Source of the DNA: Alphaproteobacteria bacterium
GTDB taxonomy: Bacteria; Pseudomonadota; Alphaproteobacteria; UBA828
DNA: 64,000 bases
Assembly: GCA_963667785.2 (NCBI GenBank)
Contig: CAXXMU010000001.1
Location: 544,001 to 608,000, forward strand
Direction: 5' to 3'
Shown: positions 38,880 to 44,995 of the stretch, one piece after another
Layout of the letters: every line of letters starts with the position of its first letter
Position numbering within the stretch: position 1 is the stretch's first letter
The notes under the pieces: model-generated
Databases searched by the model: none
What the model was told of the DNA's origin: nothing
What the model saw: only the letters and a program-made list of their open reading frames with translations
Program-made: the position numbers and the translations under genes

Positions 38880-39269
38880 TCACTCGGCGCCGGTCGCTTC
38901 CTTGAGATAGGCGATCAGGTTCAGGCGGTCTTTTTCCTTCTTGACCCCCCTGAATGCCATCTTGTTCTTCGGGATGTAGCCCTTGGGGTCGGCGATGTAC
39001 GCGAGGATGGTCTCCTCGCTCCACACGATGCCGGCTTCCTTCATCGCCTTCGAGTACTTCTTGAATCCCTCGGCCGTGCCCGAGGTGCGGCCGAAGACGC
39101 CGTACAGGTTGGGGCCCTGCTTGTGCTTTCCGCCTTCCTTGACGGTGTGGCAGACCTTGCACTTCTTGAAGACCTTCTTGCCCTTCCCCGCATCTGCGGC
39201 GATGGCGGACGCGCTCGCCGCCATCATGGCGGAGGCGAGGGCGATGGCGAGAACGTGTCGTGCGCGCAC
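38880..39269 (-). CDS. Class I cytochrome c (c2/c550-like)
   Basis: Signal peptide; [29 protein letters not shown] start with GGGAG RBS. Confidence 0.93.
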
Positions 39270-39371
39270 GGGAATCTCCCTGGTCATGGCCCCGATCGGC
39301 CAGTGTGGGGGTGCGAGGATAGGCCGGGTTCGCACCCTCGATCAAGGACACCCGGCCTTGTGCAACCGGCC

Positions 39372-40634
39372 CTATTGCGCGCGGTATTCCTCGTCCAGGA
39401 AGAAGCGGCTGTCGTACTCCTCCACGCCGAGGTGACACTCGGCGCAGAACTCGACCCGCGCCGCGCCCTTGCCGCCGGTCGCGCCGATCACCTTGCCGCT
39501 CGGCATGATCAGCGTGTAGCGCCAGTCGCCCGTATCGGGGTCGAATCCCGCCTCCATCTTCTCCATCAGGAAGAGCGGCCCAGCACCCACCCGGCCGCCG
39601 GCGGTGACGGTGAAGCTGTCCTTGGCGAGCACGGTGCCCACAGGCGCGGGACCGGCCTCCTCGAAGAGGGCGTAGTTATCGGCGCCGATATCGTTGGCGT
39701 AGTTGTTGACGTAGCGCGCCCCGTGGGTGTCCGAGACATAGGGCTGGGCGGCGACGTTCCGCCAGCCCAGGTAGGACGCGGCCCACTGATTGCCGGACTT
39801 CGCATAGCCCTCGGCCATGGCCCCGCTGATGCAGGCGTAGGCGTCGCGGGCTTCGTCCGCCGTCAGCTCGACCTCCTCGCCGGCAGCACAGGGGTTGCAC
39901 GGCCCGCAGGGGTTACAGGGAGCGCACGGATTGCAGGCCGCCGCGCACGGGTTGCACGCCGCCGCGCACGGATTGCATGGGTTGCAGGGAGAGCACGGGT
40001 TGCACGCCGCCGCGCATGGATTGCAAGCCGCCGCGCAGGGGTTGCACGGATTGCAGGGAGCGCACGGATTGCAAGCCGCCGCGCATGGATTGCAGGGGTT
40101 GCAGGGAGCGCACGGATTACAGGCCGCCGCACAGGGGTTGCACGGAGCACACGGTCCGCAGGGGCCGCTCGCTGCGGCGAGGCGCGGCACGACGCAATCG
40201 GAACTCGCCGCCGCGCCCGCCGCACAGGGATTGCACGCACCGCACGGCCCGCAGGCGCCGGCACAGGGGTTGCATGGGTTGCACGCCCCGCACGGGTTGC
40301 ACGGCCCACACGGGCCGCAAGCAGCCGCGCACGGGTTGCACGGATTGCAGGGACTGCACGGGCCGCAGGCGCTTGCGCACGGCCTGCACGGATTACAGGG
40401 ATTGCAGGCTGCCGCGCAGGGGTTGCACGGGTTACAGGCCCCACACGGGTTGCACGGCCCGCACGGATTGCAGGAGGCGAGCTGGAGAGCGCCCGCGTCC
40501 TGCTGCGGCGGAGCCACGGCCGGCGCATCGCCGTCGGGCGCGCTGGCCAGGGCGTGGCCGCCGCCGGCGGCGACCGCGAGGCCGATGACCACGGGGACCA
40601 CCGTTCCGGCGAGCAGGGGTTTCGTGCGTGGCAT
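39372..40634 (-). CDS. Secreted poly-cysteine (CNPC-repeat) protein fused to a cytochrome P460-type domain
   Basis: GAGGGAGG RBS; signal peptide ending HALA; two Cys-x-Pro/CAAA blocks; C-terminal [20 protein letters not shown] and CAECH near the C-terminus. Confidence 0.85.
39885..40472 (-). repeat. Coding tandem repeats of 9/12-bp units ([13 protein letters not shown])
   Basis: Recurrent gcacgggttgca/gcagggg and gccgccgcgca units with synonymous variation. Confidence 0.9.
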
Positions 40635-40772
40635 GTCGGGCCTCCCTCGTTGACCGTATCCGTCGCGACGTGTCCGTCGCGAATTGTCGACGAGTGCATG
40701 GTGCGGAGCAAACCCCTTCGACTCAAATTTTTGTGATTCCCGCGTCGGGCGGGCGGGGGCTACGCTCATCCG

Positions 40773-41636
40773 ATGATCGCTCTCCGTGCCGCTCTTGCCG
40801 CGTGTCTCGTCGTCGCCGGCGCGCTGCTCGCGGGCTCCGCAGAGGCCGCTGGCGCGATCGTGCCGGAGGTGGTCGAGGTTCCGGCCGGCTCCTTCATCGC
40901 GGGCTCCGATGCGGCCGAGCGCGAGTACGCCTACCGGCTCGACGAGGCGGCCTACGGCCACTCCCGGACTCGCGAGCGCGGCTGGTACGACCGCGAGCGC
41001 CCGCGCGGCCCCAAGTCGCTCGACGGCTTCCTCATCACGCGCAACCTGATTACCAACGCCCAGTACCGGGCGTTCGTGGCTGCCACGGGCCATCGCGTCC
41101 CCGATGTCGATCCCGAGACCTGGCGCGGCTATCGGCTCATCCACCCCTATGAGCGCACCCGCCGCCATGCGTGGGCGGACGGCCGGCCGCCGCCGGGGCG
41201 GGAGAATCATCCCGTGGTCATGGTCTCGCACGGCGACGCCATGGCCTATGCGGCCTGGCTCTCGGCCGAGAGCGGGCACGGCTGGCGGCTCGCCACCGAG
41301 CTCGAATGGGAGAAGGCCGCGCGCGGGACCGACGGCCGCTTCTTCCCCTGGGGCGACACCTTCGACCCGGCCCTGCTCAACAGCCACGACAACGGTCCTT
41401 TCGACACGCTGCCCGCCGGCAGCTTTCCCGCAGGCGCGAGCCCTTACGGCCTGCTCGACGCGGCGGGTCAGGTCTTCGAGTGGACGGCGTCGCCGGGCAA
41501 TCCGGGGCGCTTCCTCGTGAAGGGCGGATCGTGGGACGACAGCGGCTGCGGCATCTGCCGTCCTGCGGCGCGGCACGGGCGGCCGGCGGACATCAAGCAC
41601 ATCCTCGTCGGCTTCCGCCTCGTCAGGGAGCCGTAG
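40773..41636 (+). CDS. Secreted formylglycine-generating enzyme (SUMF1/EgtB/PvdO) fold protein
   Basis: Signal peptide; [64 protein letters not shown]. Confidence 0.9.
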
Positions 41637-41676
41637 AGGACGGAGAGCCGGCACTGGCCCGCTCCCGTCGCCGCGT

Positions 41677-42072
41677 TCACGGCCTGCGCGCCAGGAGATC
41701 GATTTCGACACGGGCGCCGAGGGCGAGCCCGGTGACGCCGACGCAGGTCCGCGCCGGGCGCCGCTCGGGATCGAAGTAGGTCTCGTAGACCGCGTTCATC
41801 GCCGCGTAGTCCTCCTCGAAGTGCGTGAGATAGACCCGCGCGACGATTACGTGCTCGAGCCCGAGGCCGAGAGAGTCGAGCACGACCTTCAGATTGGCCA
41901 TGACGTTCCGGGTCTGGCCCTCGATGCCGGCGGGCAGGGGAGCGGCCTCGTCCTTCGGATCGTTGGGCATTTGACCTGTGACGAACACCCAGCCATCCGC
42001 TTCGACGGCGTGGCTGAAGGGAGCCACCGGCGTCGGTGCGCCGGCCGCCATGTGAAAGATCGGTGCTGTCAT
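41677..42072 (-). CDS. RidA/YjgF family protein
   Basis: [31 protein letters not shown]. Confidence 0.9.
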
Positions 42073-43823: not shown

Positions 43824-43919
43824 ACCGCCGCGTCGCCGCCGCCCCGACTGGCAAGAGCCGCTCCGCAGCACTATGTTTGGTTCCTGGCAGCGCGCGCGGG
43901 CAACCGGTAGAGCGGCAGG

Positions 43920-44681
43920 ATGGCTAAGGCCCAGGCGACCAAGAGCGGCCGGCAGGAGGAGACCCGCCACCTCGACATGGCGACGCAGCCCGTGAAGAGG
44001 CTGCGCATGATGCTCGCCGCGGGCGAGGACGTGCTCGAGATCCAGCGGGTGCTCGGCCGGACCGGCGACAGCGTGGTGAGCGAGCTCCTGCGCGGCCATG
44101 AGACGTTCTACGAGTGGGATCATTACCCGAAAGGGGACGTCTTCGACGGCGAGAGCCACGCCCAGTACTTCTACCACACCCATCCCGGCGGCCTCAGGGA
44201 CAAGGAGCACGGGCACTTCCACACCTTCATCCGCGCCAAGGGCCTGCCGCGCGGCATGAAGCCCAAGCGTCACAAGAGCCGTGACAAGTGGCCCATGGGC
44301 GATGACGCGGTGACCCACTTGGTCGGCATCTCCATGGATTCCAAGGGCCAGCCGCTCCGGCTCTTCAGCACCAACCGCTGGGTCACCGGCGAGACCTGGT
44401 ACAAGGCCGACGACGTGTGCAAGGTGATCGGCCGCTTCGTCATCGGCCACGCCCGCCCGTCCTGGCCGACCAACCGCTGGATCGGCGCCATGGTGCGGCT
44501 GTTCTGGCCGCAGGTCATGATGCTGCTGAAGGCGCGGGATCAGGTGATCGAGAACTGGGCCGCCCAGAATCCCGCTCTCGACACACTCGAAGACCGCCGC
44601 CTCGAGGTGGCCTCGCAGGCCGAGGTCGACATCGAGGCGCAGCTCGCCGCGGTCAGGGCCGCTCTCGACGCACGGACGTGA
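43920..44681 (+). CDS. His-rich conserved hypothetical protein (DUF6969-like)
   Basis: WDHYPKGDVFD..SHAQYFYHTH, EHGHFHTF, FSTNRWVTGETW. Confidence 0.7.
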   Translation: MAKAQATKSGRQEETRHLDMATQPVKRLRMMLAAGEDVLEIQRVLGRTGDSVVSELLRGHETFYEWDHYPKGDVFDGESHAQYFYHTHPGGLRDKEHGHFHTFIRAKGLPRGMKPKRHKSRDKWPMGDDAVTHLVGISMDSKGQPLRLFSTNRWVTGETWYKADDVCKVIGRFVIGHARPSWPTNRWIGAMVRLFWPQVMMLLKARDQVIENWAAQNPALDTLEDRRLEVASQAEVDIEAQLAAVRAALDART

Positions 44682-44738
44682 GGCGGCGCAGCCTCGTCGG
44701 GCCCGGTGCCGTCACGATACCGGGCCCGAAATGAAGAA

Positions 44739-44760
44739 CGCCGCCTCTTGCGAGGCGGCG
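44739..44760 (-). terminator. Intrinsic terminator of the CNPC peptide gene; a second hairpin at 44697-44729
   Basis: cgccgcctc-gcaa-gaggcggcg followed by ttcttcattt on the minus strand. Confidence 0.65.
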
Positions 44761-44791
44761 CCCTCGGATAAGGTCAGAGATACGCGTGAGC

Positions 44792-44995
44792 CTAGCTCGA
44801 TGCGCACGGATTGCAGGCGCATGGATTGCAGGCGCACGGGTTGCAGGCACACGGGTTGCAGGCACCGCAGGGGTCGTCATCGTGCGAATCCGCAACCACG
44901 ATCGGCGTGTCGCCAGCGGATACGGCCGACGGCGCGAGAGCGGCGCCGGCCGCCATGGTGACAACGCTCACGGCAACCACGGTCTCCTTGATCAT
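44792..44995 (-). CDS. 67-aa secreted Cys-rich peptide with (ACNPC)x4
   Basis: [78 protein letters not shown]; four 15-bp repeats at 44802-44861 varying only at synonymous positions. Confidence 0.85.
   Translation of the reverse strand: MIKETVVAVSVVTMAAGAALAPSAVSAGDTPIVVADSHDDDPCGACNPCACNPCACNPCACNPCASS

Follow-up and report, generated by a model that had tools for sequence, protein, structure and literature searches.

A conserved envelope gene module of Alphaproteobacteria combining DUF6969, an FGE-fold protein and exported cysteine arrays

Introduction

What does a bacterium do with exported proteins built largely of closely spaced cysteines? The question is raised by a gene cluster in a stretch of 64,000 nt from an alphaproteobacterium (positions 544,001–608,000 of contig CAXXMU010000001.1, assembly GCA_963667785.2), called the window below. 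The cluster encodes a poly-Cys protein fused to a P460-type haem domain, a 67-aa Cys-repeat peptide, a class I cytochrome c, an FGE-fold protein and a protein of the family DUF6969. An initial annotation had named these five genes, and translations and Pfam scans place all of them where it did. For their function it had suggested a periplasmic thiol sponge, for soft metals and metalloids or against nitrosative stress, or else a new class of modified peptides.

The region is a real, conserved envelope module. It consists of DUF6969, an exported FGE-fold protein and exported Cys arrays, with a soluble cytochrome c alongside, and it is recognized by its genes, their export signals, folds, conserved residues and conserved linkage. 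With a probability of roughly one in three, it is a sulfur or thiol redox system that pairs a catalytic haem with carrier cysteines; we prefer this to a soft-metal buffer or a source of modified peptides.

Genes were taken from a list of open reading frames (ORFs) with translations, and families were assigned by Pfam and NCBIfam scans. The genome searched is 4.09 Mb and 98% complete. The features of the module are as follows.

38880–39287, minus strand: exported class I cytochrome c (c550/c2-like, CycA-like; PF00034, E = 4.7e-12)
39372–40634, minus strand: exported poly-Cys protein with C-terminal P460-type haem domain, 420 aa (translation, Pfam)
40635–40772, no strand: divergent intergenic region between the poly-Cys-P460 and FGE-like genes (alignment of 4 genus loci)
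40773–41636, plus strand: exported FGE-fold protein with signal peptide (PF03781, E = 1.9e-43)
43920–44681, plus strand: DUF6969, cytoplasmic, 253 aa (PF22308, E = 1.4e-81)
44729–44764, minus strand: terminator-like GC-rich hairpin with T-run, between the convergent DUF6969 and peptide genes (read from the sequence)
44792–44995, minus strand: exported 67-aa Cys-repeat peptide (translation)

Results

The genes recur together

The genus sample comprises 20 other genomes. All 20 have matches to DUF6969 and to the peptide, and 19 have matches to the P460 domain and to the FGE-like orthologue; the genome without the latter two (G009) is 62% complete. Most often the order is poly-Cys-P460, FGE-like, DUF6969. 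The matches to FGE-like and DUF6969 are separated by about 140–250 bp in all 19 genomes having both, and a peptide match is found no more than 500 bp from DUF6969 in 17 of the 20 (3–6 kb away in G007, G015 and G016).

The association extends through the class. Across an even sample of 301 genomes, with the FGE-like orthologue counted at E ≤ 1e-60, a P460-like domain is found in 42, DUF6969 in 66 (including one unpublished genome, G268) and the FGE-like orthologue in 26. Of the 42 genomes with P460, 35 also have DUF6969, versus 31 of the 259 others; of the 26 with the FGE-like gene, 25 have DUF6969 too, and 22 genomes carry all three. The Fisher values, 1e-17 to 1e-20, overstate independence because the genomes are related. 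Coordinates read by hand show P460 and DUF6969 no more than 10 kb apart in 20 genomes from many families, and the FGE-like gene directly upstream of DUF6969 or within 3 kb of it in 20 of 26. The initial annotation had proposed a conserved set in which CNPC proteins, the FGE-like gene and the His-rich DUF6969 gene should co-occur. The set is borne out in the genus and in the class sample, and these genes recur together widely.

A generic scan for Cys density was unusable in this high-GC genome (359 ORFs). It was replaced by a count of at least three NPC (Asn-Pro-Cys) units, with C-x-x-C-x-x-C added for the larger locus set described below. By the NPC count just three ORFs stand out in the whole genome: the poly-Cys-P460 gene, the 67-aa peptide and a paralogous peptide on contig C2.

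Two sets of DUF6969 loci were compared. The first has 68 loci. Six come from a sample of relatives, and the rest from 62 genomes of the class sample, in which 65 genomes besides the present one are positive (G062, G172 and G268 were left out). Within 5 kb of DUF6969, a P460 domain occurs in 22 of these loci, an FGE-like gene in 23 and a cytochrome c in 30 (15 within 600 bp). An ORF with at least three NPC units lies within the same distance in 27 loci, and in 17 of these it is a stand-alone small exported peptide.

The second set is the best 80 of 569 confirmed relatives, from species-representative genomes, with genes counted anywhere in loci of up to about 12.7 kb. FGE-like genes are present in 41 loci, Cys-repeat ORFs in 37, DUF2336 in 35, cytochrome c in 25, apt in 21, P460 in 18 and an exported rhodanese in 14. 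Among the carriers with names are Thalassospira profundimaris, Aestuariispira insulae, Terasakiella, Oceanibacterium hippocampi and several Azospirillum; in the Azospirillum loci DUF6969 goes with DUF2336, and a Cys-repeat gene is lacking. Of the 53 loci whose flanks reach 3.5 kb or more on each side (L077–L156), 25 have a Cys-repeat gene and 27 have DUF2336, with both in 3 and neither in 4; the two are nearly exclusive.

Might there be no system at all, the genes being independent and kept together by inherited synteny in the slot between apt and cysQ? The order cytochrome c, DUF6969, cysQ does occur without a Cys-repeat gene in a neighbouring family (L007–L009, with apt alongside in L007 and L009), three inserted genes are tolerated in the present genome, and the peptide paralogue on C2 lies between unrelated neighbours, an ABC1-type kinase and a pyridoxal phosphate-dependent enzyme, far from any DUF6969 or FGE-like gene. 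However, the trio of P460, FGE-like and DUF6969 genes recurs outside apt/cysQ, and its order differs between families (for example L005, L006 and L047–L054), so that inherited synteny alone is hard to accept. The genome-level co-occurrence is strong, and stand-alone peptides of differing sequence adjoin DUF6969 in many families. An origin by synteny alone is very improbable.

DUF6969 is the hub

The hub of the module is DUF6969, not P460. DUF6969 stands also beside stand-alone exported Cys-repeat peptides. The protein matches PF22308 over positions 2–201 of 201 (273.4 bits against a cut-off of 27) and has no export signal. Its 5051 homologues at E ≤ 0.001 are all unnamed or 'hypothetical'. Residues H68, D73, D76, H86, H88, E96, H99 and H133 are invariant in 46 sequences; judged from sequence, DUF6969 probably carries a metal site.

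The AlphaFold2 (AF2) model has a predicted local distance difference test score (pLDDT) of 90.3 and a predicted template modelling score (pTM) of 0.88. Foldseek found no match to it in the PDB at E ≤ 0.001, the best Z in a wide VIA search over 48,161 chains was only 3.4, and the sequence has a chance match only (E = 1) in the PDB. By this model the protein has no recognized fold, a weak or absent match being no proof of a new one. Longer DUF6969 proteins number only two, with SH3-like or PAP2 domains, and are uninformative.

A cupin was considered from the pattern HxH...E...H. It found no support in the fold searches and was rejected.

The Cys arrays vary in sequence and keep their spacing

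The poly-Cys-P460 protein begins with an N-terminal hydrophobic export segment. A Cys array, a conserved C-V-V-P-R-L linker, a second Cys array and the P460 domain (about 39372–39884) follow. The repeats cover about 200 aa, and the protein has 60 Cys (14% overall) and 27 NPC units. An LLSxTxIP-type export segment is common to many members of the family. In the alignment of 4 genus loci, GGGAGG precedes the ATG within a conserved block.

The 67-aa peptide has a signal peptide, PIVVAD and then a C-x-x-C tail with four ACNPC units, encoded by a 15-bp DNA repeat present 4.1 times. AGGAGGAG, 8 nt before the ATG, is a strong ribosome-binding site; downstream of the stop codon is a terminator-like GC hairpin with a T-run. 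The paralogue, at G000:C2:532177–532374 (locus L001 9178–9375), is 78% identical and has the same signal peptide.

Another form of the peptide is found in G005 (L002 8413–9015). It has three cassettes, each with IVVAD, then three ACNPCE-like units, then SSLDE, and looks like a multi-core precursor.

Are the repeats truly coding? Every tandem-repeat period in the Cys arrays is a multiple of 3. The array region 39890–40480 differs from a related contig (run X3, labelled sponge metagenome) by in-frame indels only, of +9, −21, +27, −9 and −18. Thus the repeats are coding, and array length evolves fast.

A fixed CNPC motif, as first described, does not hold. The unit is a Cys array of varying sequence, with NPC, CGAC and CAPC among homologues, and what is constant is Cys at short, often three-residue, intervals. 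Since the arrays differ in sequence but keep this spacing, they fit a chemical role of the thiols better than recognition of a fixed motif.

The arrays are not confined to P460. In two loci beside DUF6969, NPC repeats are fused to a SoxA/TsdA-type haem domain (PF21342): L144 5106–5879, labelled Pseudomonadota, with 36.8 bits, and L146 3485–4402, labelled Betaproteobacteria, with 43.7 bits, against a cut-off of 27. Judged by domain matches, Cys arrays are joined to two unrelated catalytic c-haem folds, P460 and SoxA/TsdA.

The haem domain resembles a Lys-type P460

The match of the C-terminal domain to Pfam Cytochrome_P460 (PF16694; E = 4.7e-5, 24.2 bits) is under the 27-bit cut-off, and most listed homologues of the protein carry a precomputed PF16694 match. 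There are 274 homologues at E ≤ 0.001. Among the best 120 of these and the window protein, 104 of the 121 have at least 5 Cys upstream of the P460 domain.

The AF2 model of the domain (pLDDT 94.2, pTM 0.90) finds its best Foldseek match, over the C-terminal 170 aa, in 7ead (E = 2.8e-6, probability 1.00, template modelling score 0.74), and all 18 matches listed down to rank 21 are P460 or c'-beta entries. The haem-attachment residues C397, C400 and H401 are invariant in a 47-sequence alignment (A2), and CxxCH, Lys338 and Glu358 are each kept in at least 95% of 118 homologues. A profile built from A2 and compared with solved sequences gives 7s5o (1.9e-4), 8gar (0.017), 2je2 (0.026) and 7ead (0.073) as its top four. 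In the profile alignments K338 (within LAKDSF) shares a column with NeP460 Lys70, 7s5o Met79 and 7ead Phe61, which occupy the cross-link position according to Table 2 of a 2025 review (PMC11928373). The domain looks like a true Lys-type P460, and it is possibly catalytic. The fold match and the Lys in the cross-link column lend weight to the earlier assignment to P460.

In the portions of the same review used here, a Lys cross-link together with a distal carboxylate (NeP460 Glu96, McP460 Asp102) is a feature of NH2OH-oxidizing P460s. Glu358 is aligned with Glu96 of 2je2 (NeP460) and with Gly82 of 7ead, and the 7s5o alignment puts there a residue other than the review's Ala109. Glu358 is in the distal-carboxylate column in two of three printed alignments, with 7s5o inconsistent.

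A defence against nitrogen oxides could be drawn from these residues. The P460 domain would oxidize NH2OH or bind NO, and the tethered thiols would trap NO or HNO. The P460 fold, the Lys in the cross-link column and the two alignments on Glu96 agree with such a function, but the stand-alone peptides and the SoxA/TsdA fusions do not fit it and the carboxylate column is inconsistent for 7s5o. Nor were nitrogen-cycle genes found in the window cluster or among the neighbours scanned, which are 221 ORFs from 32 diverse DUF6969 loci compared with Pfam. A nitrogen-oxide defence is quite unlikely.

Six proteins (P0103, P0110, P0114, P0115, P0117 and P0118) carry the P460-like domain with no repeats, joined to the end of a class III adenylate cyclase. 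The fusions suggest that the domain may be an extracytoplasmic sensor in some lineages.

The FGE-like protein and a possible modification of the arrays

The FGE-like protein has a full FGE-sulfatase domain (PF03781, 149.4 bits, positions 3–255 of 255). True FGE binds Cu(I) through two Cys and recognizes the substrate motif CxPxR. Among solved structures the closest relative of the present protein is ToxD (7spq, 5.7e-25), with true FGEs at about 1e-12; by PDB sequence comparison the protein is nearer ToxD, CalU17, OvsA and EgtB than true FGE. It has a conserved GGSWDDxGCG[IV]C loop, whose CxxC is kept in six of seven orthologues. The HMMER alignments to true FGE structures end before this loop.

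One orthologue, that of G035 (L006 5168–5893), has a divergent N-terminus and CGVY in place of CG[IV]C. It may be decaying.

Can the protein act as a canonical FGE on the arrays? CxPxR is not conserved in them, as the NPC, CGAC and CAPC repeats have no conserved Arg, and the linker C-x-[VI]-P-R-L is in a different register. No sulfatase gene was found by Pfam in the window cluster or the 221 neighbour ORFs. Pro-free arrays of the CGAC type also have FGE-like neighbours. As a general reading, a canonical FGE acting on CxPxR is rejected, because arrays without Pro or Arg neighbour FGE-like genes too.

A broader kind of modification can be considered, with products like those of ribosomally synthesized and post-translationally modified peptides (RiPPs): DUF6969 would modify the arrays before export, or the FGE-like protein would oxidize a Cys such as that of the linker, or both. 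The linker is present in 79 of the 104 Cys-repeat P460 homologues and goes with a neighbouring FGE-like gene (both 26, motif only 7, FGE-like only 5, neither 10; p = 0.0037, with kin not independent). DUF6969 is the constant partner of Cys-repeat genes, with an NPC ORF within 5 kb in 27 of 68 loci versus 3 such ORFs in the 4.09-Mb genome. The three-cassette peptide of G005 is also in keeping with it, and such products would be compatible with a sulfur or metal cargo. A precedent for cytoplasmic Cys modification of Sec-signal precursors is given by the bufferins, in the sections of PMC11626156 on which we draw.

Against these points, the arrays share no common sequence motif, even Pro-free arrays being found next to FGE-like genes. 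The FGE-like protein has its nearest relatives outside true FGE, with a Cys spacing that may differ from that of the true enzyme, and DUF6969 has no recognizable catalytic fold and is also paired with DUF2336 in place of a Cys-repeat gene. Taken together, RiPP-like products are unlikely. A joint scheme, which is doubtful, is that DUF6969 would be a new-fold metalloenzyme modifying arrays before Sec export and the FGE-like protein would oxidize the C-x-V-P-R-L Cys. The products would then be modified periplasmic proteins and peptides of a class not known before, acting in redox chemistry or as sulfur carriers, and some of them would be wired to P460 or SoxA/TsdA haem.

Sulfur and metal genes near DUF6969

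The neighbour survey of 32 loci points to sulfur transfer more often than to metals, and neither is constant. In 5 of the 32 loci DUF6969 has a signal-peptide rhodanese next to it, as checked on the sequences. These single-domain proteins (L047, L048, L049, L050, L052) have a short C-terminal Cys motif in four of five cases (CTAC, CGSC, CPVC, CEC), the exception being L052. DUF2336 is found in 7 loci, YeeE-type Sulf_transp in 2, TauE in 1 and DUF3179 in 3. A TAXI-TRAP transporter stands with Usp in 4 loci and without a Usp match in 2 more.

Metal-linked neighbours occur in one locus each. In L010 (7886–10302) DUF6969 is directly followed by merT and by merP-like and merA-like genes, and two peptide genes with NPC repeats are found no more than 6 kb away. 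SCO1 adjoins the FGE-like gene in L064, and locus L060 contains an extracytoplasmic function (ECF) sigma factor with NrsF. The 221 ORFs include no cop, cus or czc gene.

These neighbours bear on a soft-metal buffer, in which the exported arrays would bind Cu(I), Hg, Cd or Zn like a periplasmic metallothionein while the FGE-like protein and DUF6969 handle the metal. The dense exported C-x-x-C runs with small residues, the mer, SCO1 and ECF sigma/NrsF neighbours and the invariant His/Asp/Glu cluster of DUF6969 argue for it, and the Sec-exported, Cys-based, copper-binding bufferins are a precedent, as described in part of PMC11626156. It is weakened by the rarity of each metal-linked neighbour (1 of 32 loci) and the lack of cop, cus and czc among the ORFs scanned. 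It also leaves unexplained the fusion of arrays to two catalytic haem folds and the rhodanese neighbours, and free thiols in the oxidizing periplasm need a reductant, of which the cluster has none. We regard a metal buffer as possible and tentative.

Cytochrome c

The cytochrome c matches the NCBIfam CycA-like model at 3.5e-32, below that model's cut-off. It is a likely electron partner. Cytochrome c is also present in DUF6969 loci without a Cys-repeat gene. It is often near DUF6969, but this is partly old synteny with apt and cysQ.

Flanking genes, inserted genes and control sequences

The remaining genes of the region are as follows.

38304–38843, minus strand: apt (Pfam/NCBIfam)
41677–42078, minus strand: RidA (Pfam)
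42195–43097, plus strand: aldo-keto reductase with a twin-arginine translocation (Tat) signal (Pfam)
43161–43823, plus strand: DUF6064 membrane protein (Pfam)
45157–45933, plus strand: cysQ (Pfam/NCBIfam)

The flanks apt and cysQ are as the initial annotation gave them. Its gene list was right in the five genes of the cluster and omitted RidA, the aldo-keto reductase and DUF6064, which lie between the FGE-like and DUF6969 genes. These three (41677–43823) are an insert in this genome only, absent from all 19 genus genomes with both flanking genes. In runs X1, X2 and X6, contigs pass from 41624 directly to 43905, leaving out 2280 bp, and so lack the insert. RidA, the aldo-keto reductase and DUF6064 do not belong to the module.

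In the divergent promoter region, alignment shows a conserved block, CTCAAATTnTnGTGA, at 40722–40736, shared by 4 genus loci. Its pattern has one match in the window and at least one match in 15 of 100 shuffles, which is not significant by count. The block could be a regulator site. A promoter and terminator scan returned no sigma-70-like sites; its sole terminator-like site is inside a gene, and the hairpin at 44729–44764 is not listed.

Discussion

What the arrays carry, which way the electrons flow and what the FGE-like protein and DUF6969 do are inferred as follows. The Cys arrays would be the working part, serving as exported poly-thiol carriers. Sulfur species would be attached to them covalently, as persulfide or thiosulfonate, and removed again, or the arrays would alternate between thiol and disulfide. 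The catalytic haem joined to them would perform the oxidative step and pass electrons to cytochrome c, and maturation, repair or recharging of the arrays would fall to the FGE-like protein and DUF6969. By analogy, the logic would be that of SoxAX with SoxY, a catalytic haem and a carrier cysteine, multiplied many-fold. In its favour are the linkage of the genes, the joining of arrays to two unrelated catalytic c-haem folds, the rhodanese, YeeE-type and TauE neighbours, and the constancy of Cys spacing in arrays of differing sequence.

Several observations weigh against such a sulfur or thiol redox system. This genome's own cluster has no rhodanese or other sulfur or metal neighbour of the kinds met in the survey. 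The genome gives no match to SoxY (PF13501) or SoxA/TsdA (PF21342), and no DUF2336 match over the cut-off. Many DUF6969 loci have the peptide without a haem protein, so that the core pair cannot depend on a haem. The combination of a Lys-type P460 and a distal carboxylate would suggest NH2OH, not sulfur, and metal-linked neighbours (mer in L010, SCO1 in L064, ECF sigma/NrsF in L060) also occur. The adjacency of cytochrome c, apt and cysQ is partly old synteny, and the relatedness of the genomes inflates the co-occurrence statistics.

No characterized pathway with this architecture had been known to the initial annotation, and our literature searches agree: none of the papers found names DUF6969, these repeats or a Cys-rich P460, subscription-only papers and supplements being outside the search. 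The parts of the P460 review (PMC11928373) reached by word search have none of the terms tried for repeats or fusions. Titles and abstracts on DUF2336 contain nothing related.

Outside the cytoplasm, the module may handle sulfur or metals in a new manner. Its proteins are candidates for periplasmic sulfur carriage or for thiol or metal buffering in marine and soil Alphaproteobacteria. If it works as a unit, it is a widespread envelope system, with DUF6969 in 66 of 301 class genomes and thousands of homologues. Its parts are unstudied: a family without a recognized fold, and Cys-array genes whose smallest members are short and of low complexity. If the proposal is true, the Lys-type P460 haem gains a role outside nitrifiers and methanotrophs. 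Cultured carriers (Thalassospira profundimaris, Aestuariispira insulae and Terasakiella) make the module testable.

Comparison with known systems

Metallothioneins and bacterial copper storage proteins are alike in their Cys-rich low complexity and C-x-x-C spacing, a likeness from composition alone. In contrast, the module proteins have Sec-type export, some are fused to haem domains, and they have conserved enzyme-like partners.

True FGE (the aerobic formylglycine-generating enzyme, SUMF1) and the FGE-like protein share the FGE-sulfatase fold and probably two Cys in the loop after GGSW. The Cys of the FGE-like protein are C-x-x-C, its nearest solved relatives are ToxD, CalU17 and OvsA, and the neighbouring arrays have no conserved CxPxR.

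The bufferins resemble the peptide genes more closely. According to the sections of PMC11626156 used here, BufA precursors have a Sec signal, are modified by the MNIO BufB and the DUF2063 protein BufC, and act in the periplasm. Both systems have small Cys-bearing precursors with a Sec signal, an adjoining gene for a cytoplasmic partner and a periplasmic destination. Here, however, the partner is DUF6969; neither MNIO (DUF692) nor DUF2063 has a Pfam match in the window cluster or the 221 neighbour ORFs. As cores the module has long Cys arrays of low complexity, and some of these are joined to haem domains.

SoxAX with SoxYZ, and TsdA, are thiosulfate-oxidizing c-haem systems in which a carrier cysteine takes part. 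Features in common with the module are a catalytic c-haem that is exported, cysteines that resemble carriers, and cytochrome c as acceptor. At L144 and L146, repeats like those of the module are joined to a SoxA/TsdA haem domain, and rhodanese and YeeE-type neighbours occur at DUF6969 loci. Unlike Sox, with its one swinging-arm Cys, the module has dozens of Cys, its partners are the FGE-like protein and DUF6969 in place of SoxB or SoxCD, and this genome is without SoxY and SoxA/TsdA.

The P460/c'-beta superfamily (NeP460 2je2/2je3, McP460 6hiu, TtCP-beta 7ead) has the same fold and the C-terminal CxxCH, and the domain described here has a Lys in the cross-link column. The present domain is very distant from it in sequence (24 bits to Pfam), it is preceded by about 200 aa of Cys repeats with a conserved CxVPRL linker, and it is found in heterotrophic Alphaproteobacteria beside FGE-like and DUF6969 genes.

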